Below are positions 30,177 to 42,976 of a DNA stretch of 64,000 nt, in pieces (within the stretch, counting starts at the first letter, position 1; each line of letters begins with the position of its first letter). The notes under the pieces were generated by a model. That model had not been told where the DNA came from. It was given only the letters and a program-made list of their open reading frames with translations, and did no database searches. A program made the position numbers and the translations under genes. Location: contig CAWBHS010000057.1 of assembly GCA_963788655.1 (NCBI GenBank), positions 256,001 to 320,000 of the forward strand. The letters are read 5' to 3'. Source of the stretch: an uncultured Verrucomicrobiae bacterium. Its GTDB lineage: Bacteria; Verrucomicrobiota; Verrucomicrobiia; Limisphaerales; JAFGQR01.

Positions 30177-30308
30177 GCGCCCCTGAGGATGCGTTAGATC
30201 CGTGCTGAAATTTTTGCCCGTTCGAGCCTGACTGGCAGCGCTTGGTTATTTTGCATGGGAGAAAGCGGTCACACAACCCAGCTCGATCTCAAATCCCCTT
30301 GATTTTTA

Positions 30309-30337
30309 TGGTGCGCATAGCAGGACTTGAACCTGCA
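30309..30337 (-). repeat. Distal att site (duplicated tRNA-Leu 3' end)
   Basis: tggtgcgcatagcaggacttgaacctgca, identical to 42706-42734. Confidence 0.92.
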
Positions 30338-30796: not shown

Positions 30797-31326
30797 TTCC
30801 GCCTGCCGGTCGTGGTGCCAGGTCGGGTCCGGGGCGAGCCCAGGTGCCAGGTGCCGTCTGCCCGACGCTATGCCAAACGTCCGGGGGCGGGGGGCATCAC
30901 GCACTGCGAACTCGCCGAGCACGCTCTCACCGCCGTTCTTTGCGTCGGCGTAAGGAATCTCTTTTTTCGCAGAGGGGTGCGAGTCGAAGGGGGGGGTAGG
31001 CGGGCTTTCGGGGGCCGGGTCGAACGAATAGGGGGCTGCTTTACCAAAGTTGGTTTTGGGAACTTTGGGCGGCTACTGTGCGCTACCAGGCGTTGCAACG
31101 GCACGGTCCAGATCGCACCGTCGAAGAAGAACAAGCGATTGGATTCGGTTTGCGGTTTCAACGATTTGCAATAGCATCCCGCCAAAGTTCATGATCTGGA
31201 TCGCCCCATCCGAAAAGGACGCTGACACCGCCGCGCTGGAAAAACGTCTCTGGGACAGCGCCGATCAGTTCCGCGCCAACTCCGGGCTGAAGCCCCAGGA
31301 ATATTCCGCGCCCGTCCTCGGCCTCA
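30797..31326 (+). repeat. ~520-bp direct repeat, copy 1 (non-coding leader plus hsdM 5' end)
   Basis: Highly similar to 32282-32789. Confidence 0.9.
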
Positions 31327-31424
31327 TCTGCCTCCGCTTGGAGCGGGAGATAGACGAGTTGGTGTATGCGCTCTACGGCCTGACCCCGGAAGAAAAAGCC
31401 CTTGTCCAAGCCGCCGCCAAATGA
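31191..31424 (+). pseudogene. Chimeric RM remnant: HsdM N-terminus fused to a type IIG-like C-terminus
   Basis: [27 protein letters not shown] (HsdM_N) joined directly to [18 protein letters not shown]. Confidence 0.75.
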
Positions 31425-31732
31425 AAACGCTTCAAGATTGTTTCGGCCATCAAGTCCGGCTCACGGATGAGCGGCTGGCGCACATTCTGGAACATTCCGA
31501 AATGAAGGGGATGGGCGCGGAGATTGAGCGCGTGTAGCGCCAGCCCCAGTTGGTGCGGCGCTCGCGGTCGGATGAGGCGGTGCGGTTGTTCTACGAATTT
31601 TACGCGCAGACGGTTGTGGGTGGCAAATGGCTGTGCGTTGTGGTTAAATATGTGGAGAACGATGCGTTTGTGGTCACGGCCTACCTGACCGACAAACCGA
31701 AAGCCGGAGACGATTTATGGCCGAAAAAGTAA
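31421..31732 (+). pseudogene. RelE/DUF4258-like toxin with an internal TAG at 31535
   Basis: [25 protein letters not shown]...ERV*RQPQLVRRS...LCVVVKY...VVTAY; overlaps the downstream DUF2283-like gene. Confidence 0.6.
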
Positions 31733-31932: not shown

Positions 31933-32160
31933 TTCCCGCCGCCCCGCCGGAAAAGCAAAAGGCGGTGGAGCGGTTGGTTAACCGCATCCTCGCGGCGAAG
32001 CAGCGGGATGCCAAGGCGGACACGAGCGCGTGGGAGCGGGAGGTTGCTTCCCAGCCCCGCAGAGTGTTGCCCCGGAAAACGATGGCCGCCATCGCGACAG
32101 GCGGTGACGTGTTGGTGTATGCGCTCTACGGCCTGACCCCGGAGAAAAAGCCCTCGTCCA
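31933..32160 (+). pseudogene. Second remnant of a type IIG RM C-terminus
   Basis: PEKQKAVERLVNRILAAK..DTSAWERE...[10 protein letters not shown]. Confidence 0.6.
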
Positions 32161-32281
32161 AACCGCCGCGAAATGAATGTCCGCATCCAGAAAGACGTTG
32201 TGGAACTTGCCTCGCGGAAGCACCGGCAGGCATGGAAGAAAAGTTCCAACGTCAGCGAGCAGACCAAATCAGCCCAATGGG

Positions 32282-32789
32282 TTCCGTCTGCCGGTCGTGG
32301 CGCCAGGTCGAGGTCCGGGGCGAGCCCAGGTGCCAGGTGCCGTCTGCCCGACGCTATGCCAAACGTCCGGGTGCGGGGTGCATCACGCTCTCACCGCCGT
32401 TCTTCGCTTCGGGGTAAGGAATCTCTTTTTTCGCAGAGGGGTGCGAGTCGAAGGGGGGGTAGGGGGGCTTTCGGGGGCCGGGTTGAGCGAATGGAGGGCT
32501 GCTTTACCAAAGTTGGTTTTTGGAAATTTCGACAGGTAATGTGCACTACCAGGAGTCGCAACGGCACGGTCCAGATCGCACCGTCGAAGAAGAACAAGCG
32601 ATTGGATTCGATTTGCGGTTTCAACGACTTTCATTACCATCGCGCCAAATTACATGATCTGGATCGCCCCATCGGAAAAGGACACAGCCAACGGTACCCT
32701 GGAAAAGAATCTCTGGGCCGCGGCCGACCAGTTCCGCGCCAACTCCGGCCTCAAATTCCAGGAATACTCCGCGCCCGTCCTCGGCCTCA
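32282..32789 (+). repeat. ~510-bp direct repeat, copy 2
   Basis: Similar to 30797-31326; lacks a ~22-nt segment present in copy 1. Confidence 0.9.
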
Positions 32790-32866: not shown

Positions 32867-35800
32867 ATGCCGCGCAAGAAAACGATCAATCCTGCTGCTC
32901 CGAAGGCGGGCGATTCCATCTCGTCGATCAAATATCCCGCCAAGCGGAAGAACATCCCGCCGGCGGGGCTCGAAGCGCAGGGCGTGCTTCAGGAGGCCCC
33001 TCGCCTTCGCTACGAATACAACCCGCATCTGCCGCCGGAGCTTCGCTCGGCCACGGATGCGAGGGAGGCGGACAAGCTGCCGGAGCTTCTGGCCATTGCG
33101 CGAAAACGCGCACTGTCAGCCGACGAGGCGAAGGTACTCGCGGACGCCCTGCGCCGCCACGAGCCGTGGCTGGAGTGGAGCGGGAAGCGCGAGAAACCGT
33201 GGTTCGAGGTCGATCCGGTGGCCCTGCACATGCACGAGCGCATGTCCACCCAGGCCATCCTGCGCGTGTTGGCGCGGGAGGATGTCGAGCGCGATCTCTT
33301 TGCCGATCCGCAGCACGATTATGCCAAGGCCGTGCAGTTCTACCAGCACGACATGGACTGGGCGAACCGCATGATCCTCGGCGACTCGCTCCAGGTCATG
33401 GCCAGCCTCGCCCGGCGCGAAGACCTCGCGGGCAAGGTGCAGATGATCTACATCGACCCGCCCTACGGCATCAAGTTCGCCTCGAACTTCCAGCCGCAGC
33501 TCGGCCAGCGCGACGTAAAGGACCGCGAGCAGGACCTCACCCGCGAGCCGGAGATGGTCAAAGCCTACCGCGACACCTGGACGCTCGGCATCCACTCCTA
33601 CCTCGCCTATCTGCGCGACCGGCTGCAAATGGCCCGCGAACTCCTCGCCGACTCCGGCAGCATCTTCGTGCAGATCAGCGATGAAAATCTGCATCGCGTC
33701 CGGTGCGTGATGGATGAGGTGTTTGGGGCGGGGAATTTCGTTGCCACCGTCATCGTTGCAGAAAACGGGTGCACCAAAAAGGAGGCACGACTGGAGCCAA
33801 TCAATGACTATCTCCTGTGGTATGCGCACGTGACATCGCGAAGGTTAAGACACGAACCGTCTACACTTCACGAAGAAGCGGATGAAGGCGAAGAAGGTAC
33901 GGTTCAATTCAAATCTTTTCACCAGATGGTGAGGCACGACGACTAAGCGATGGCGACGTGGCTGACGCTGCGGAATTGCGATCAAAGGGATCGGCGTCTG
34001 CATTTGCAAGCGATCCGCTGACTTCTGGCGGCGAATTTCGCACCCAACTATTCGCGATCAGTTTCAAGGACCAGATCTTGGAATCCGCCGCGGAATAACT
34101 CATGGAAGACTCAATCGAGGAATCTATGACGGCGTGCCTTGCGTCAGATCGGGTTGATGGCGGGCAAGGGCAGATTCGCTATCGGAAGTTCGTTGACGAT
34201 TATCGCAGCGCAGTGCCGTTGACGAATTTGTGGACCGATGCAGCGCGGAAGCACTGACAAGATTTACGTCGTCCAAACGACTCCAAAGGTGGTTCAGCGC
34301 TGCATCTTGATGACCACCGACCCCGGCGACCTCGTGCTGGACCCGACGTGCGGGAGCGGGACGACGGCGTATGTGGCCGAGCAGTGGGGCCGGCGCTGGA
34401 TCACCTGCGATTCCAGCCGGGTGGCGCTGGCGCTGGCCAAGCACCGGCTGTTGACGGCGAAGTTCGATTACCACCAGCTTCGCCCGCTGAGCGCGGAGGA
34501 CGTGGCGCGCAATCCGCACGGGACGTGGCTGAGCGGGGACACCCTCGCCGCGCCGGACGAAAAGCGGCAGAGGACTGCCGCACTCCAAGACGCTTCGCGA
34601 AGTTCAGGGGCGTCAGATGGTGCGCCAGCTTTTGGACTGCGCCAGTCCTCTGGCGCTTTTTCCACGGGCAAATTCACCTTCAAGTGCAAGACGGTGCCGC
34701 ACATCACGCTCAAGAGCATCGCCCGCAACACCTCGCTTGATCCCATCTTCGCCAAACACGAGCCGATCCTCGCGGATAAGCTGACCCAACTGAACCGCGA
34801 AGTCGCCAAGGTCGGCGCGGCGCTCAAGGAGAAGCTGGTGGAGAAGCTGATCCACAAGCATCGCGAATCCGGCGCGAACGCCGTGACGGACGCCGACACC
34901 CGCCGCTGGCTGCTGCCGGACACGCAGCCGGTCTTGATCCGCTCGTTCCCCGCGAAGAAGCCATTCAAGGGCGTGACGCCGAAGCAGGCGGAGGCTTATC
35001 GCGCCGCGATTCCCAAAGGCGGCTGGCAGGAATGGGAGATCCCCTTTGACACCGATGCCAACTGGCCGAAGCCCTTGCAGGAAGCATTGACCACCTACCG
35101 CGACGCGTGGCGGGCCAAGATGGACGAGGTGAACGCCTGCATCTCCGCCAACGCCGAGATGGAAGAACTGGTGGACAAGCCTGAGCCAGTGAAGGGCGTG
35201 GTGCGGGTGAGCGGCCCGTTCTCGATGGAAGGCGTCATCTCCGTGGAAGACGGCCCCGACACGCCGATCGGCGGAGCGCCGGACGAACTGGAGACTTTCG
35301 ACGGCGACGCGGCGGTGCAGAACGCCGAGGCGCATCTCGATACGATCATCCGCCTGCTCAAAGCGAGCGGCGTAGATTTCCCCGGCAACAAGAACATGAA
35401 GTTCAGCCGGCTCGATCCGCTGACGGATGCCGCCATGATCCATGCCGAAGGTGAGTGGGACACTGCGGCGTTTGGAGTCCCGCCTTCAGGCGGCTCGGGC
35501 GAACCGGCTAAAGCCGGGACTCCGAACGAGAGTTCCCGCCGCGTGGCCGTGAGCATCGGGCCGGCGGTCGGCAACTTCAGCGCGATGCAGGTGGAGGAAA
35601 CGCTGCACACCGCGGGACGCCGGAGCTATGACGACATCGTTTTCGCGGGCTTCGGCTTCGATGCCACCGCGCAGGCGATCATCGATGCCGATCCGAATCC
35701 GCGGGTGCGCTGCCACATGGCGCTCATCCGCCCGGACGTGGCGATGGGCGACCTGCTCAAGACGCAGCCTGGGAGCCAGCTTTTCACCGTCTTCAGCGCC

Positions 35801-36187
35801 CCGCGCGTGAAAGGCCCGACGAAGCAGGCGGACGGCGAGTTCACCGTCGAGGTCGAGGGGATGGATGTCTATGACCCGGTGAGCAACACGCTTTTCCCGA
35901 CGGACAAGGAGCGGATCGCCGCGTGGTTCCTCGATGCGGATTACGACGGACGGACGTTCTGCATCTGCCAGGCGTTTTTCCCGGACAAGAGCAAGTGGTC
36001 CAAGCTGGCCAAGGCGCTCGGCGATGCCGACGTGATAGACGAAGGTGCGTTCGAGGCGTTGAGCGGCTTGACGAGCCTGCCCTTCCCGCGCCCCGAGCGG
36101 CGGGGCAAAGGCGAGACCTGGCGCGTGGCGGTGAAGGTGATAGATCCGCGCGGCAACGAAGGTTTGCGGGTGCTGACGATCAACTAA
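32867..36187 (+). CDS. mod: Type III RM DNA methyltransferase (Mod); central region frameshifted (~33760-34250)
   Basis: ILGDSL, YIDPPYG (motif IV), VQISDEN, then VLDPTCGSGTT (motif I), i.e. beta-class order; C-terminal VAVKVIDPRGNE. Confidence 0.88.
34561..34659. repeat. REP-like inverted pair lying in-frame inside mod
   Basis: aaagcggcagaggactgccgcactccaa / ttggactgcgccagtcctctggcgcttt, 25 of 28 positions complementary. Confidence 0.8.
35470..35527. repeat. Second REP-like inverted pair lying in-frame inside mod
   Basis: gtttggagtcccgccttcaggcgg is the exact reverse complement of intergenic 49186-49209. Confidence 0.85.
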
Positions 36188-36225: not shown

Positions 36226-37407
36226 ATGAAACTGAAATTTCGCAGAAATGCTCACACGTTGAAGGCGGAGAATTTCGGCCCGATCAAGTCGGGCCGGGTG
36301 GAATTTGGCGACCTCACCATCCTGGTCGGCCCGCAGGCCACCGGCAAAAGCATCTTCCTCCAACTGCTCAAGTTGCTCGTTGACATCCGGCACGTAAAGT
36401 ATGAGTTCAAGCGTGCCGGCATTGACTGGCAAAACAAGTTCGAGCTTTTTCTGGATGTCTATTTTGGGGAAGGCATGAAGAACTTGAAGCAACCGGGAAC
36501 GCATGTGGAATTCGGTGGCGCGCCGGAAAATCTGGAATCTCTAGTCGCCGATACCAAGGCGGCGAAGGGCGAATCCATGTTCTTCATCCCCGCCCAGCGC
36601 GTGCTCACCCTGCGCGATGGCTGGCCCCAGGCCTTCACGTATTACGACCCGGGCGTTCCCTTCACCGTGCGCGAGTTCAGCGAAGAACTGCGCCTTTTGA
36701 TGACGGATCTGTCGCCCACCGAAACCTTGTTCCCCGTGCCGCGCCGGTTGAAACAGGAATTCCGCGACCTGCTCCAGGCTCATGTCTTCCCGGGTTTCAA
36801 CCTCAAGATTGACCCAGCGCGAACACAGAAGCGCCTGGTGCTGACGGCGGGTGAAAACGGAGCGGCCTTGCCGTTCATGGTCTGGTCTGCCGGTCAGCGT
36901 GAATTCGTTCCGCTGCTGTTGGGCTTGTATCATCTGCTCACCCCGGCAGGATCGCCCCGGCGGCAGGGGGTGAAATGGGTTGTGCTCGAGGAGCTGGAGA
37001 TGGGCCTGCATCCGCGGGCCATCAGCATCGTCATGCTGATGGTTTTTGAATTGGTTTCACGTGGTTACCGCGTCTGCATCTCCACCCATTCGCCGCAGGT
37101 GTTGGATGCCGTGTGGGCCTTGAAGCACTTGCACGAGTGCCGGGCCAAGCCTTCCGCCTTGCTCGAAGTCTTCGACGCCCCCGCGACTCAGGGTATGCAA
37201 AGCCTCGCGGAGAAAGTGATGAAGAAGCGCTCCAAAGTTTATTACTTCGACCGCGAAGGTGAAACCATCCGCGACATTTCCGACTTGAATCCTGATAAAG
37301 AAGAAAGCGGCGAAAGCGGTTGGGGCGGGCTTTCCGAGTTCAGCGGCCGGGCCAGCGAAGCGGTCGCAAAAGCGGTTGCAAACGCAGGGAGAAAGGCCCA
37401 GTCGTGA
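36226..37407 (+). CDS. Soluble ABC-type ATPase (AAA_15/AAA_21-like), defence-associated
   Basis: ENFGPIK, Walker A GPQATGKS, signature WSAGQ, Walker B LEELEMGLHP, H-loop STHSP; no TM partner nearby. Confidence 0.85.
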   Translation: MKLKFRRNAHTLKAENFGPIKSGRVEFGDLTILVGPQATGKSIFLQLLKLLVDIRHVKYEFKRAGIDWQNKFELFLDVYFGEGMKNLKQPGTHVEFGGAPENLESLVADTKAAKGESMFFIPAQRVLTLRDGWPQAFTYYDPGVPFTVREFSEELRLLMTDLSPTETLFPVPRRLKQEFRDLLQAHVFPGFNLKIDPARTQKRLVLTAGENGAALPFMVWSAGQREFVPLLLGLYHLLTPAGSPRRQGVKWVVLEELEMGLHPRAISIVMLMVFELVSRGYRVCISTHSPQVLDAVWALKHLHECRAKPSALLEVFDAPATQGMQSLAEKVMKKRSKVYYFDREGETIRDISDLNPDKEESGESGWGGLSEFSGRASEAVAKAVANAGRKAQS

Positions 37408-37871
37408 GTTTCAAAGATGCGGTGGAGTCCACTCCACATCTTGAATGGTGTGCTGGCCTGCAAGCGTTGCGGCGAGAGGACAAGCCACACATTGACCCAG
37501 AAGACCCGCGGCGCTTAAGCGGTAGTGTAGATGTTGATACGGCCTGGCTACAGCTTGATCCGCATGGTAATCGCTGGGATTTTGCCATCGCTTATCAGCA
37601 TGCCAACCGTGCCGAAGAATTCGTTTACTGGGTGGAGCTCCACACCGCGAGCGACTCGCAGGTGAAGAAGGTGATTGCGAAGGCCAACTGGTTGTTGAAC
37701 TGGCTGAAAACCAGCGGCCAACGCCTCAACGCGTTTGAACGCGAAATCCTTTGGGTCGCCAGCGGTGCCACCACGTTCACGCTCACCTCGTTCCAGAAGA
37801 AGCAAATGGCCTTGGCGGGACTGCAACATCGCGGCAAGGTGCTCCGCATCCCCAACCAATATCCCGACTGA
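37404..37871 (+). CDS. 155-aa putative PD-(D/E)xK-fold nuclease, partner of the ATPase
   Basis: GTGA overlap with the ATPase stop; RWDFAIAY...YWVELH resembles a D...ExH variant active site. Confidence 0.55.
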   Translation: MSFKDAVESTPHLEWCAGLQALRREDKPHIDPEDPRRLSGSVDVDTAWLQLDPHGNRWDFAIAYQHANRAEEFVYWVELHTASDSQVKKVIAKANWLLNWLKTSGQRLNAFEREILWVASGATTFTLTSFQKKQMALAGLQHRGKVLRIPNQYPD

Positions 37872-37883
37872 GCGAAACAGCGT

Positions 37884-40800
37884 ATGCCCGAAATCCAGAT
37901 TCCCATTCAGCCAGTCGAGAACCCGATTCTTTGCTCGCCCTACAAGGAGCCGGATCAACACTGGCTTTACGACACCAAGACGGGCATTCCCACGAAGACG
38001 CCCGGTCGCCGGCCCGCGAGTTACTGGTTCAAGACCGAACGCACCGGCAGCGCCCAAATGTCGTTGCTCGCCGAAGAAGAACGGGACGACCTGCCGCTGG
38101 TGAACGCGCTCCGCGAAGACGTGCGCCGTTGGCGGGGCTCGAATTGGGAGAACGCCAGCGAAACGACGAAGAAACTGCTGCGCCATTGGTGGCGCGAAGA
38201 TCGGGGACGACGGTTGTTCTTCTGCCAGGTGGAGGCCGTGGAGACGATTATTTATCTTCGGGAGATTCTGGCCCTTGGCAAAAAGCCCCGCTGGACGCCA
38301 AAGCTGACGCTCGATGATTTCAACACGCTCAGCCATGGGAAGAACCCGCGCCCGGAGGAATGGATGGCGCGAGTAGCGCAGCATCCGAAGTTGGCCGACA
38401 TTCCAAATGAGGCAGGAGCAAAGGCGATCCACCGTTACGCCTGCAAGATGGCCACGGGCAGCGGCAAGACGGTGGTGATGGCGATGCTCATCTCGTGGGC
38501 GTTTTGCAATCGGGGCACGAAGCCGGGCGATCCGCGTTTTCCGCGTCGGGCGCTGGTGCTATGCCCGAACCTCACGATCAAGGAACGGCTGAACGTGCTG
38601 CGCCCCGGCGACCCGAACAACTACTACGAGATGTTCGACATCGTGCCGTCATCGCTGCGTCCCGAACTGGCCAAGGGCAAGGTGCTCGTGACCAACTGGC
38701 ATTGGCTGGCACCCGAAGCGGAGGTTCAAAACGTGGGCGGTGCGCCCATCGTGCGGCTGGGCGCGGAGAGCGCCGAGGCTTTTGCACGTAATCGCTTGGG
38801 CGATCTGTGGGACGAGGAACCGCTGATGGTCCTGAACGATGAAGGCCATCATGCCTACCGACCCGCACCCGTGGACGAGGATGTTAAACTTTCCGCCGAG
38901 GAAAAAGCCGACCGCGAAGAAGCGACGGTGTGGGTGAGTGGGCTGGACAAGATCAATGCCGCCTGCGGCATCGGCATTTGCGTGGATATGTCGGCCACGC
39001 CGTTCTACCTGCATGGCAGCGGTTACCCGGAAGGTTCGCCGTTCCCGTGGATCGTCAGCGACTTCTCGCTGGTGGACGCCATCGAGAGCGGCATCACAAA
39101 GATTCCGCGTCTCCCGGCGATTGATAACACGGGACGGCCCGACCCGAAGTATTTCAAATTGTGGGATCACATTGTCCGCGACTTACGCGCTGGGGAGAAA
39201 CTTACCGGTGGTAAGCCCAAGCCTGCGGTGGTCTATCGCAAGGCCGAGGATGCGTTGTTGACGCTGGCAGGCGAGTGGAAACAGAAACTCGAACAGGTCA
39301 CCTCCTCCGCACCCGGACAGGATCGCACTCCGCCGGTGATGATCGTAGTCTGTGACAACACGGATATAGCCAAAGAGTTTTACCGCGCCATCTCCGGGGA
39401 AGAACTCATTGAGGCAGACGTTCCCGATGAAGAGGATGACGATGAGGATGAAACCCCAAAGCGACGGAAGAAAAAGGCCAAAGCCAAGAAACACTACGGC
39501 GCTGGGCTGCCCGGTTTCTCCGAGTTGTGGAATCGTGAGGGAGCAGAAGTAACGCTGCGCATTGACTCCAAGCTGCTCGCTGCCGCCGAGAGCGAAGACC
39601 CAAACACCACGAAGAAAGAAGCGGCGGAGGAATTGCGGAAGATTGTCTCGACCGTGGGCCGCGTCGGCGAAGCCGGCGAGCACATCCGCTGCGTTGTCAG
39701 CGTGAACATGCTCAGTGAAGGCTGGGACGCAAACAACGTGACGCATATTCTCGGCCTCCGCGCATTTCACAGCCAGTTGCTTTGCGAGCAAGTGGTGGGG
39801 CGGGGCTTGCGTCGTATAGATTACACGCCCGACCCCGTAACGGGATTGTTGACCGCTGAGTACGTGGACATTTTCGGCGTGCCGTTTTCCCTCATTCCTT
39901 TCAAGGGCCGCGAGCCAGGCGGAGGCCCGCCTCCGGAAGACCGCCCCAAGCACGAAGTCATGGCGTTACCCGAGCGGAAGCAATTCGAGATTCGATTTCC
40001 CGTGGTCGAAGGCTACGTGGTTTCACTCCAGCGCAACCTGGTGACCGCCGATTTGGGCAAAGTTGAGCGCACGAAGCTTGATCCGTGGACAACGCCAACG
40101 GATGCCTTCGTTCGTCCGCAGGTCGGTTATCAGATCGGCCATGCCAGCGCCCACGGCGGCTTCGGTTTTGAACTGGTGAATCGCCAGGAATATTACGACT
40201 CAGTTCATCCGCAGACCATCGAGTTTGAGATAACGCGGGAAATTGTCCGTGCGCTTACCGAGGCGGCGCATCCCGGCAAGGAGCGTCTGCGACGCGAGAG
40301 TCGCAGCGCGTTGTTCCCACAGGTGCTCCGAATCGTGCAGGGTTATATGCGGGAGCGCGTGGAGTTCAATGGCTTGAATCCTTGTGAGGTAGGCTTGCAG
40401 ACGTATGCCCAGCACATCATCGGCCGGTTGATTGCCGCGATCACGCCGGACGACAGCAAAGGCGAAGCGCCGTTGCTGCCACGGTTGAACCGCTACAAAC
40501 CGATTGAAAGCACTGAGAAGGTTCACTTCAAGACAGTGAAGCCGGTGCAAGTCACGGGAGCCAGCCACCTGAACTTTGTCGCGTGCGACACCAACTCATG
40601 GGAGCAAGCGGCCACATTCCAACTCGAAAAGCTGGCGAAAGAGGGTGTGGTCTATTGCTACGCCCGTAACGACCGTCTGGAGTTTAACATTCCTTACGAG
40701 CTTTACGGGAATCCCCAAGTGTATGAACCGGACTTCATTGTCCGACTTCGCAACTCTGTGAGTGTGGTGACCGAAATCAAAGGCAAGTCATACGAAGACA

Positions 40801-41078
40801 CAGATGCCAAGCATCAGGCGGCGCGACGGTGGGTCGCAGCAGTGAATCATTGGGGCAGGCTTGGCGAGTGGGACTTCATGGTCTGCCGCGAGCCGCAACG
40901 ATTGTCCGACGAGTTTGCGAAGCTCGTAACCTCACGAAACGAACGCATCCGCGCCGTGGCCGCGGAGTTGAAAACACAGGCCGAAGGTGAGGTTGGGCGG
41001 CTGCGCTCCCTCGGATGGACACAGGCAGACTTTGCGCGAGCGCTCAAGGAATTGCTGGAAACCAAGGGGGGGCTGTAA
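37884..41078 (+). CDS. res: Type III restriction endonuclease/helicase (Res)
   Basis: KMATGSGKT, NDEGHH, SAT, EGWD, QVVGRGLR helicase motifs; C-terminal YEPDFIV...EIKG nuclease. Confidence 0.9.
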   Translation: MPEIQIPIQPVENPILCSPYKEPDQHWLYDTKTGIPTKTPGRRPASYWFKTERTGSAQMSLLAEEERDDLPLVNALREDVRRWRGSNWENASETTKKLLRHWWREDRGRRLFFCQVEAVETIIYLREILALGKKPRWTPKLTLDDFNTLSHGKNPRPEEWMARVAQHPKLADIPNEAGAKAIHRYACKMATGSGKTVVMAMLISWAFCNRGTKPGDPRFPRRALVLCPNLTIKERLNVLRPGDPNNYYEMFDIVPSSLRPELAKGKVLVTNWHWLAPEAEVQNVGGAPIVRLGAESAEAFARNRLGDLWDEEPLMVLNDEGHHAYRPAPVDEDVKLSAEEKADREEATVWVSGLDKINAACGIGICVDMSATPFYLHGSGYPEGSPFPWIVSDFSLVDAIESGITKIPRLPAIDNTGRPDPKYFKLWDHIVRDLRAGEKLTGGKPKPAVVYRKAEDALLTLAGEWKQKLEQVTSSAPGQDRTPPVMIVVCDNTDIAKEFYRAISGEELIEADVPDEEDDDEDETPKRRKKKAKAKKHYGAGLPGFSELWNREGAEVTLRIDSKLLAAAESEDPNTTKKEAAEELRKIVSTVGRVGEAGEHIRCVVSVNMLSEGWDANNVTHILGLRAFHSQLLCEQVVGRGLRRIDYTPDPVTGLLTAEYVDIFGVPFSLIPFKGREPGGGPPPEDRPKHEVMALPERKQFEIRFPVVEGYVVSLQRNLVTADLGKVERTKLDPWTTPTDAFVRPQVGYQIGHASAHGGFGFELVNRQEYYDSVHPQTIEFEITREIVRALTEAAHPGKERLRRESRSALFPQVLRIVQGYMRERVEFNGLNPCEVGLQTYAQHIIGRLIAAITPDDSKGEAPLLPRLNRYKPIESTEKVHFKTVKPVQVTGASHLNFVACDTNSWEQAATFQLEKLAKEGVVYCYARNDRLEFNIPYELYGNPQVYEPDFIVRLRNSVSVVTEIKGKSYEDTDAKHQAARRWVAAVNHWGRLGEWDFMVCREPQRLSDEFAKLVTSRNERIRAVAAELKTQAEGEVGRLRSLGWTQADFARALKELLETKGGL

Positions 41079-41080
41079 TC

Positions 41081-41527
41081 ATGCCAAACCAGAACTATCG
41101 CGTGGTCCTGGACACAAATGAAGTGGTTGGCGCTGGAACAGGCTGGTTGGATCATGGTGTTCCGGTTCCAGACAAGAACTCGCACCGTCGCGTTTTGATC
41201 CGGGTTGCGGAGTCGCACACCGGACTCTACAGCGGCAAAATCGTGGGCGAATATTTGGAGAAGCTCGTGGACCTCGGGCATCCGAAGGAGCGAGCGGTGA
41301 AGATGATCACCTACCTCATGGGAGCCTTCAGCCCGGTGAAGATCGTTTCCAAGTCTGCGCCCGTTCCTCCCGCCGATCCCGATGACGAAGTTGTTCTGCT
41401 CTGCGCAATTGACGGCAATGCCGATTACCTCGTCTCCAAGGACAAACACCTGACAGACATCAAAGGTAGTTACACCAAGCCGGTGATTGGACGAAGTGGC
41501 GAGTTGTCTGGGGCTTTGGGAGCGTGA
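41081..41527 (+). CDS. PIN-domain (VapC/PIN_3-like) ribonuclease
   Basis: RVVLDTN, EY, DPDD, ADYLVSKDKHL; starts 2 bp after the res stop. Confidence 0.8.
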   Translation: MPNQNYRVVLDTNEVVGAGTGWLDHGVPVPDKNSHRRVLIRVAESHTGLYSGKIVGEYLEKLVDLGHPKERAVKMITYLMGAFSPVKIVSKSAPVPPADPDDEVVLLCAIDGNADYLVSKDKHLTDIKGSYTKPVIGRSGELSGALGA

Positions 41528-41557: not shown

Positions 41558-41690
41558 TTGCGCGTGATTGATTGGGAGCAGCCGGCGAACAATGATTTCC
41601 TGCAGGTCAGCCAGTTCAGCGTCACCGGGGCGCTCTACACCTGCCGGCCGGATCTGGTCGGTTTCGTCAACGGCCTGTCGCAGGTGGTCA
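41558..41690 (+). pseudogene. hsdR: Internal fragment of type I hsdR
   Basis: RVIDWEQPANNDFL.VSQFSVTG...RPDLVGFVNGL, broken before the expected ELK. Confidence 0.75.
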
Positions 41691-42624
41691 GCCGACGTTG
41701 CCGCGTTTTACTCTTTCCTGCGGTGACTTCAATGTGGCCGGCCACGCGCCACACGTCCGCCCAATCCAGTCGAAGCAATTCCGATGTCCGCAGTCCGGCC
41801 AAACCACCGATGGCAAGCATCGCCTGCATGGAGCCATGGGCCGCTTGCAACAAGTCTTGAAATTCACTTGGCTGGTAGAACTGGACTTCGGCGGTGTTGG
41901 CGCGTTCCGGACGCATCGCTTCGGCTTCGTTCAAGCGGTGCGTCGGCGGCAGGTAGTCTTTGCGAATAGCCCATTGATGGAATTGCCGGATGGCCGCGCG
42001 GTAATGGTTGCGGCTCTTCGCGGAAAAATCACTGAGCGTGCCAATGAAGGCGTCTAAATGTTCCTTGCCCAGGTCGCAGACGGCGGTGTTAGGGAACGTG
42101 TCGGCGAATTTACGGAGCTGGATTTCCCGATTGTAGGCATATTTTGAGGAGAGTTGCGCCCGCTGACCGTTGGTAGCACGGGTTCTGGGTGCGATGGAAC
42201 CTAGAAACTCCGTCACGGCTTCGTTGATGTCTTTGCGCCCGACATTGGCAACCGTGCGCAGATAGCCGGTGACGGCCTCGCCCAGCGTACGCCCGCCCAG
42301 TTTGACCGCCGCCTCGGCAAACTCAGAAACAGCAGCCAATAGGGAGACGCGACGCCCAGTGGACTGGTAGAAGCCTTGCAGCCGTTCAAATGCGGCAAGG
42401 GCGTCGCGGGACTGAGAGGCGGTGAGGGCGACCGCTTGCGAGCCCTTAGCCAATTCGCGCACGGCCCGCTCGGCGGCTGCGCGGGCTTCCGAATAGGCAG
42501 CGAAAGTTTGCATCCGGCGTTTGCCTGCAACGCTATAAGCGACCCGGTAGTAATTGAACTTTCCGCTTCGAGCGTAGATTTTCGCCTGGCTATTGCGATG
42601 GCGGATGGTGACGGGAAACTTCAC
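41688..42624 (-). pseudogene. int: Tyrosine recombinase/integrase truncated at the C-terminus
   Basis: Core-binding region (KSRNHYRAAIRQF), GLRTSELLRLDW and KSKTRQRRL, then runs into the hsdR fragment; no HxxR or catalytic Tyr. Confidence 0.85.
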
Positions 42625-42705
42625 TCGACGGTCAGAAGTTCGGGGTGAATTCTGTGCAAATTCTGTGCAAGATTGTTGAGGATTACCGTTATCCTCAGTG
42701 TTTTT

Positions 42706-42790
42706 TGGTGCGCATAGCAGGACTTGAACCTGCACGGGTTTCCCCACTACCACCTCAAAGTAGCGCGTCTGCCAATTCCGCCATATGCGC
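42706..42790 (-). tRNA. tRNA-Leu(GAG)
   Basis: GCGCATATGGCGGAATTGGCAGACGCGCTACTTTGAGGTGGTAGTGGGGAAACCCGTGCAGGTTCAAGTCCTGCTATGCGCACCA: 85 nt, long variable arm, GAG anticodon, CCA end. Confidence 0.95.
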
Positions 42791-42976
42791 AAGCTGCGGC
42801 GCTTAATGAACCAACCCAAACCGGAATCTGCAAGCCCGAAATATCGGTCCGTCCCCGGCAATTGACCGGAGGCCCTCGAGGTCGAGGCGGCCCGGCCAAG
42901 AGGTGACTGCCGCGGCCGCCGATTTTGTCGCAGATTTGCTATGGCGTTTTGGGCGGCGCCTGCTTATTCTTTGGGC

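Follow-up and report, generated by a model that had tools for sequence, protein, structure and literature searches.

Organization of the locus

The window (the whole stretch of 64,000 nucleotides analysed here, from an uncultured Verrucomicrobiae bacterium) carries on its forward strand an ATPase gene that runs directly into a small second gene, whose product we call the partner. The pair comprises the following features:

36226..37407, + strand, ABC ATPase of the OLD/AAA_21 type, PDC-M56A (393 aa; PADLOC, Pfam, model)
37404..37871, + strand, small protein of predicted PD-(D/E)xK fold, PDC-M56B (155 aa, GTG start; PADLOC, model)
37404..37407, + strand, GTGA start/stop overlap of the two genes (sequence)
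37536..37682, + strand, putative active-site codons of the partner (conservation and model)

The GTGA overlap described in an earlier sequence-only reading of this DNA was confirmed at 37404–37407, and an overlap of the same 4-base length occurred at 48 of 70 distinct homologous ATPase/partner junctions. Since the remaining 22 junctions had gaps of 1–14 bases (21 junctions) or an 11-base overlap (1 junction), the overlap is usual but not obligatory. A purine-rich stretch, GGGAG/GAAAGG, lies just 5′ of the partner GTG and could be a candidate independent ribosome site. A promoter scan of the coding strand gave no signal above shuffles.

The partner is a real gene. It was matched by 768 cluster representatives at E ≤ 0.001, which, together with the near-invariant residues described below, rules out a chance open reading frame; its structural model had a mean pLDDT of 96.6. 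The RWDFAI and WVELH motifs reported earlier are present at partner residues 57–62 and 76–80. Three database proteins (P0124, P0201 and P0252) have ATPase sequence continuous with a partner domain; they could be fused in nature, or a frameshift artefact at the 4-base overlap could have joined them. Apparent fusions in long open frames (449, 326 and 555 aa) around distant matches were set aside, as they turned out to be overlapping alternative frames.

The ATPase gene was directly upstream of the partner gene at 80 of the 84 loci examined (own genome excluded), and at the other four only 8–233 upstream bases were present. Among 301 Myxococcota genomes, all 10 with an ATPase match at E < 1e-80 also had the partner (two of the 10 partner matches being partial, one of these two on a different contig end); this count leaves out an ATPase fragment of 41 residues and a partner match judged spurious. 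Within the window's own order (201 genomes), the partner accompanied each of the four full-length ATPases (4/4) and none of the three broken or fragmentary ones (0/3). These numbers, along with the many copies that stand alone, bear out the earlier proposal of a conserved stand-alone two-gene module. The partner is rare and patchy; it occurred in 2 of 401 genomes sampled from the window's own phylum. The pair was present in 1 of 72,556 plasmid records, and searches of 50,697 phage records and of viral contigs gave no partner homologue. On plasmid CP007054.1 of Opitutaceae TAV5 (L098:7156–7653), the annotation lists the ATPase and omits the partner gene; counts that rely on annotation may therefore overlook the partner.

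Motifs of the ATPase

Pfam families AAA_21 and AAA_15 matched the ATPase, as did the PADLOC profile PDC-M56A (E = 5.5e-140, residues 11–385). In established ABC-ATPase nomenclature, its motifs are Walker A (GPQATGKS), Q-loop (PAQR), signature (WSAGQRE), Walker B (E255/E256), D-loop (EMGLHP) and H288. A C-terminal WGGL is among the invariant columns, which were taken from 93 sequences. Judged by these motifs, the ATPase looks catalytically intact. The ATPase profile matched OLD, PtuA and GajA chains, and the ATPase model was closest to PtuA. Two long ATPase homologues (P0326 and P0340) have in common an N-terminal extension of ~160 aa; as a candidate fused partner it was rejected, being unrelated to the partner.

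Predicted fold of the partner

No NCBIfam family matched the partner, and the sole Pfam match, DUF6937, had E = 0.046, below the family cut-off. Foldseek with the partner model returned no match at E ≤ 0.001; its top rows were Cdn1, Avs3, EndoMS, BsaWI, FokI and BamHI. In a wide structural search (VIA), the best match was Upx (Z = 6.3, rmsd 3.8, 118 aligned), followed by the FdxN excision factor (XisH-type, 2okf, Z = 6.1), Can2 (Z = 6.1) and Card1 (Z = 6.0). Such Z-scores (5–6.3) are middling, and most of the top rows are PD-(D/E)xK proteins. Upx is a PD-(D/E)xK protein according to the consulted part of PMC13099982. The nearest named cluster in the ESM Atlas was PDDEXK_11 at 0.78, which serves as a lead only. 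The partner model has a mixed β-sheet core with flanking helices, the restriction-endonuclease fold. Taken together, the model and its structural matches, weak but consistent in class, support a PD-(D/E)xK nuclease-like fold, as the sequence-only reading had suggested; almost all of the fold matches, weak as they are, belong to this class.

That reading had also seen no HNH, TOPRIM or HEPN motif in the partner, and none was represented among its listed fold matches. Likewise, neither the partner nor its 150 aligned homologues had an HNH or TOPRIM match in Pfam, NCBIfam or PADLOC. An HNH, TOPRIM or HEPN effector was therefore rejected, given these results and the restriction-endonuclease topology of the model. 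The 150 aligned homologues had no meaningful match among characterised effector profiles, and their Pfam matches were scattered over one or two members each. When the partner profile was compared with the sequences of solved structures, two C-reactive protein chains were returned at E = 0.33, which we took as chance.

A D..ExH..K signature in the partner

The residues kept among 329 distinct partner homologues include D59 (328/329; codon 37578), E78 (327/329; codon 37635), H80 (327/329; codon 37641) and K93 (325/329; codon 37680), all four near-invariant down to ~24–30% identity. Position 45 was Asp in 313 and Glu in 13 of the 329 (codon of D45, 37536). The exceptions were four fragments (81–110 aa) and a single sequence whose tail is aberrant. 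Lysine at position 80, its canonical place two residues after the Glu, was found in 0/329. In the model, D59 opens strand 2, E78 and H80 are on strand 3 and K93 is on the following helix; the four near-invariant polar residues lie at or beside canonical active-site positions.

The D, E and H residues picked out in the earlier reading are conserved, as the counts for D59, E78 and H80 show. Its description of a PD-(D/E)xK core with His in place of Lys holds for H80 and is incomplete, for it overlooked the near-invariant K93. A lysine moved from strand 3 to the second core helix is described for PA4535 (PDB 1y0k; PD-EXX-K) in the part of PMC3424549 consulted; its position resembles that of K93 and is a precedent for the geometry only, and the fold matches listed for the partner did not include 1y0k. 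Because K93 is near-invariant on the next helix and PA4535 offers this precedent, the partner motif looks like D..ExH..K, with the lysine relocated rather than lost. K93 probably supplies the lysine of the predicted site.

The pair lies in a Type III R-M operon on a tRNA-Leu island

The surroundings of the pair contain the following features:

30304..30337, no strand, boundary of the island, direct repeat D10 (34 bp, copying the 3′ end of tRNA-Leu)
32867..36187, + strand, Type III Mod (methyltransferase) gene (two ORFs match PADLOC MTase_III PDLC03632)
37884..41078, + strand, Type III Res gene of the BPTD_3080 family (NCBIfam NF046055, Pfam ResIII)
41015..41527, + strand, PIN-domain gene after Res (Pfam PIN_3, E = 4.4e-10)
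41635..42861, − strand, tyrosine-integrase-like ORF beside the tRNA (Pfam, weak)
42706..42790, − strand, tRNA-Leu(GAG), integration site (ARAGORN)

The pair starts 38 bases 3′ of the Type III mod gene and ends 12 bases 5′ of res, an embedding that, like K93, the sequence-only reading overlooked. Res scored 910 bits against NF046055 (cut-off 800), and the true start of the PIN gene is probably near 41078. Pfam matches of the integrase-like ORF were weak (Phage_int_SAM_1, E = 1.3e-4; Phage_integrase, E = 4.2e-4), and its true start must be further downstream because the listed ORF runs over the tRNA. The repeat at 30304–30337 is 97% identical to 42701–42734, which covers the tRNA-Leu 3′ end. The pair is thus within a 12.4-kb tRNA-Leu island bounded by 34-bp repeats.

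Mod is broken as assembled. Three-frame translation revealed frame changes and in-frame stops at ~33760–34250, in the variable middle region, which reflect either a pseudogene or an assembly error; sequencing runs with this strain were sought, and none was found (largest share 0.11). Contigs of the RNA-labelled run gave no evidence of transcription. Mod also contains an in-frame palindromic repeat at 34561–34660 with a long hairpin (z = −6.6) and 67 genome matches, and a second one at ~35470–35535 with 45 genome matches. Both add peptide inserts, and we take them to resemble REP or RPE-type elements in coding DNA. Elsewhere on the island, 30797–31425 and 32106–32771 are duplicates of each other, matching over 300 bp at 86% and in shorter blocks with a spacing of ~1.46 kb. 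Remnants of an HsdM N terminus occur in them together with the end of a different R-M gene; pieces of Type I or IIG systems are thus present on the island in decayed form.

In a genome of the same genus (93% complete), the flanking genes were present and nothing matched inside the island. In a relative's metagenome contig, 15 bases separate the counterparts of 36185 and 37884, which corresponds to an empty mod-res junction on the evidence of one contig at 80% likeness. The neighbours of the pair at 75 distinct homologous loci included Type III mod or res in 21 cases (one of them only a 30-residue res remnant) and Type I hsdM in 2. When the count was confined to the 34 loci flanked by 600 bases or more on each side, 9 had Type III neighbours, 2 had Type I and 23 neither; the neighbour queries were Type III mod/res and hsdM only, and other defence neighbours are possible among the 23. 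Three Res groups host the pair, and they match one another at ~23–25% identity or over short stretches only. R-M-linked and unlinked copies interleaved on a quick tree, the long branches of which are unsure. Some copies lie among housekeeping genes (groEL, ferrochelatase, cytidylate kinase, GH31), as judged from a scan of nearest neighbours only (106/108 ORFs).

Because 23 of the 34 loci lack R-M neighbours, the two kinds of copies interleave and some neighbours are housekeeping genes, we conclude that the cassette is autonomous; it favours R-M operons but does not need them. A dedicated Type III subunit was rejected; many copies stand alone, and a related operon is without the pair.

Proposed mechanism and alternatives

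Both genes match one PADLOC candidate system drawn from defence-embedded genes, and we consider it highly probable that the pair is a defence ATPase-nuclease module of some kind. The closest guide to its action is WonAB, which, in the parts of PMC12137116 available, combines an ABC ATPase with a 16-kDa PD-(D/E)xK variant, WonB, of which K71 is essential. The same source reports that WonB toxicity requires WonA activity, that WonB blocks translation and leaves genomic DNA intact, that simple sequestration is ruled out by the need of toxicity for the ATPase, and that the predicted binding site of WonB is on WonA, at its dimerised C-terminal extensions. By analogy, the window pair most plausibly works like WonAB. 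To the complete version of this reading, a self-contained mobile anti-phage cassette with an RNA target, we would give an even chance.

In such a cassette, the ATPase would dimerise on ATP, bind the partner through its conserved C-terminal extension and act as both sensor and required activator. Upon a phage cue, the partner would hydrolyse nucleic acid at a metal site formed by D59 and E78 (and D45), where K93 on the second core helix would replace the canonical lysine and H80 might be an extra metal ligand or the general base. The outcome, again by analogy to WonB, would be host tRNA or rRNA cleavage, translation arrest and abortive infection, and it is this analogy that makes an RNA target and abortive infection appear likeliest. 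Complex formation is described as general for 16 nuclease-NTPase systems in the consulted part of 10.1101/2025.07.10.664194, and 7 of 9 tested embedded candidates were active in the screen of 10.1101/2024.01.29.577857, as far as its available sections report. The embedded ABC-ATPase pair HEC-01 belonged to that screen too and showed no defence in E. coli (10.1101/2024.01.29.577857). This inactivity, the weak fold scores of the partner, its weak link to WonB (see below) and its DNase-like matches count against the WonAB-like reading.

The DNase-like matches raise a rather unlikely alternative, in which the architecture is the same and the effector is a DNase that, once the ATPase has sensed infection, would degrade the DNA of phage, plasmid or host, in the style of Septu, Gabija or Hachiman. 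Most of the best structural matches (restriction enzymes, EndoMS, Cap4, Hachiman HamA) are DNA endonucleases, the ATPase model is closest to PtuA, and the partner family is usually basic (median net charge of +6 in 301 proteins), although the window's own partner has a net charge of zero. Several PD-(D/E)xK effectors degrade DNA promiscuously, as stated in the part of 10.1101/2025.07.10.664194 consulted, whereas WonB, the closest architectural relative, spares genomic DNA and stops translation (PMC12137116, same parts).

The position between mod and res invites another explanation, which we regard as improbable. PrrC and PARIS act by guard mechanisms, and here too the ATPase could sense R-M inhibition or an anti-restriction protein and fire the effector as a second line. 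This would suit the adjacency to Type III mod or res at 21 of 75 loci and to Type I hsdM at 2 of 75, and the hosting of the pair by three Res groups with mutual matches of ~23–25% identity or short length. Against it, 23 of 34 well-flanked loci have no adjacent Type III or hsdM match, several copies are among housekeeping genes, linked and unlinked copies interleave on the tree, and the window's Mod is broken as assembled. PrrC is almost exclusively embedded, according to the available sections of 10.1101/2024.01.29.577857, while 11 of 34 informative loci are R-M adjacent in the present case.

We consider it very unlikely that the pair is a selfish toxin-antitoxin (addiction) cassette serving island stability, in which the small protein would be neutralised by the ATPase and any phage effect would be incidental. 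The tight gene coupling (4-base overlap), the island and plasmid locations, the patchy distribution (2/401 own-phylum genomes) and the Pfam description of AAA_21 as a putative AbiEii/type IV TA domain would all be in keeping with it, but WonAB toxicity needs the ATPase and sequestration is excluded there (PMC12137116, in the parts consulted), R-M embedding predicts defence (7/9 tested candidates active in the available sections of 10.1101/2024.01.29.577857) and just 1 of 72,556 plasmid records has the pair. Least probable of all is that the partner is no hydrolytic nuclease and instead a degenerate REase-fold adaptor or an enzyme of other chemistry, with the ATPase as the effector (for example by nucleotide depletion), which would fit the absence of the canonical lysine from 329/329 homologues and the middling structural scores but not the near-invariance of D59, E78, H80 and K93 to ~24–30% identity, the pattern of a catalytic site and not of decay.

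Comparison with known systems

The window pair is, by profile matching, a member of an already catalogued candidate system, PDC-M56 (PDLC04710/PDLC04711). The PADLOC profile PDC-M56B matched the partner at E = 1.8e-35 (residues 2–143) and also matched 150 of 150 aligned partner homologues; with the ATPase match, both proteins are covered near full length, in the same order and with R-M embedding in common, and we found no difference between PDC-M56 and the window pair. The 145 candidates of the PDC set were predicted from genes that lie inside operons of BREX, DISARM and Type I R-M systems, according to the consulted part of 10.1101/2024.01.29.577857. The present locus extends this "guilt by embedding" to Type III R-M junctions. 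The name PDC-M56 was not mentioned anywhere in a full-text literature search, the scope of which excluded most subscription papers. The catalogued candidate now gains a predicted fold, a five-residue active-site hypothesis (D45, D59, E78, H80, K93) and a comparison with WonB.

The sequence-only reading had proposed a distinct effector class for this ATPase family. In that form the proposal lacks support, as small PD-(D/E)xK partners of the ATPase clade have been published, namely WonB, the "novel REase" and PD-T4-4B (PMC12137116, in the parts consulted) and HEC-02B (10.1101/2024.01.29.577857, available sections), and the pair itself is already PDC-M56. It is thus a variant and not a new class, since PD-(D/E)xK partners of such ATPases are known, and it is not a new kind of system. 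Its distinct feature, at the level of sequence, is the active-site signature. PD-T4-4 and HEC-02 (ABC ATPase with PD-(D/E)xK or NERD) follow the same two-gene logic; the window ATPase matched their ATPase profiles weakly (E = 2e-8 and 1.7e-9, respectively), and the partner, also when searched with its 150 aligned homologues, matched neither B profile. The PD-T4-4_B profile had no match in the own genome or in 14 controls and is therefore uninformative on absence. HEC-02B, unlike the partner, keeps (D/E/Q)xK, as given in the available sections of 10.1101/2024.01.29.577857. Septu (PtuAB), PARIS (AriAB), Gabija GajA and OLD have the ABC ATPase clade in common with the window ATPase, but their effectors are HNH or TOPRIM proteins whereas the partner has the predicted restriction-endonuclease fold.

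The nearest comparison is with WonAB and the class "OLD-ABC ATPase + novel REase" (PMC12137116, citing Krishnan et al. 2020, in the parts consulted), in which an ABC ATPase gene is likewise followed by a gene for a PD-(D/E)xK-fold protein of 145–170 aa. E. coli WonA matched the PDC-M56A profile at E = 4.8e-18, third best among 62 PADLOC families, and by sequence WonA and the window-type ATPases are clearly related. The small proteins have the order and spacing D..D..E-x-[K/H]..[Q/K] in common. They differ in that the WonB family has CD..ELKG..Q, whereas the partner family has WD..ExH[PTS]A..K..WL..W together with a GLQAL motif in the N-terminal part and, following strand 1, a helix. The ELKG with its catalytic lysine, K71, is not found in the partner, which has His at that position; since this defining lysine is absent, the window pair is not a WonAB member. 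The hit tables in the consulted part of PMC12137116 contained none of EVHPA, EIHPA, EVHSA and GLQAL, and the WonB-family profile did not find the partner in the window's own genome, for which reasons we treat the two families as separate. WonB-like ELKG proteins downstream of distant ABC ATPases were seen in the window's phylum and on Bacteroidales plasmids (L130–L134, L139–L141, L128); three that were scanned (L128, L132, L140) had no PADLOC profile match at E = 1e-5.

Against one WonB sequence, the partner scored E = 0.66, which is not significant. We then compared profiles, using an alignment of 15 WonB sequences built from the E. coli WonAB locus, the invariants of which include D41, D52, E69, K71 and Q81. 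The partner profile matched it at E = 0.36, a score reached by 40 of 100 shuffles in each control; four key residues were nevertheless aligned, against a maximum of three in the shuffles. With a broadened WonB set of 23 rows, two of them probable false positives, the match was still weak (pairwise E = 0.033, probability 1.5%), its score being reached by 0/100 column shuffles and 4/100 block shuffles. This alignment paired D45 with D41, D59 with D52, E78 with E69, H80 with K71 and K93 with Q81, and 0 of 200 shuffles matched at least four key positions. This suggests that the partner and WonB differ by a reciprocal exchange of Lys for His and Gln for Lys, which does not of itself prove homology. 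A further reading, possible but speculative, is that PDC-M56B is a sister family of WonB in which the double swap (Lys to His and Gln to Lys) gave His-assisted chemistry or another substrate (for example, site-specific tRNA or rRNA cleavage), and which was repeatedly taken up into unrelated Type III mod-res junctions as a backup. The new element in all this is the D..ExH..K reading of the active site and the apparent reciprocal swap with WonB. Because the two families seem reciprocally exchanged, a few point mutants could probe how well a PD-(D/E)xK site tolerates loss of its lysine and whether the His alters the choice of substrate.
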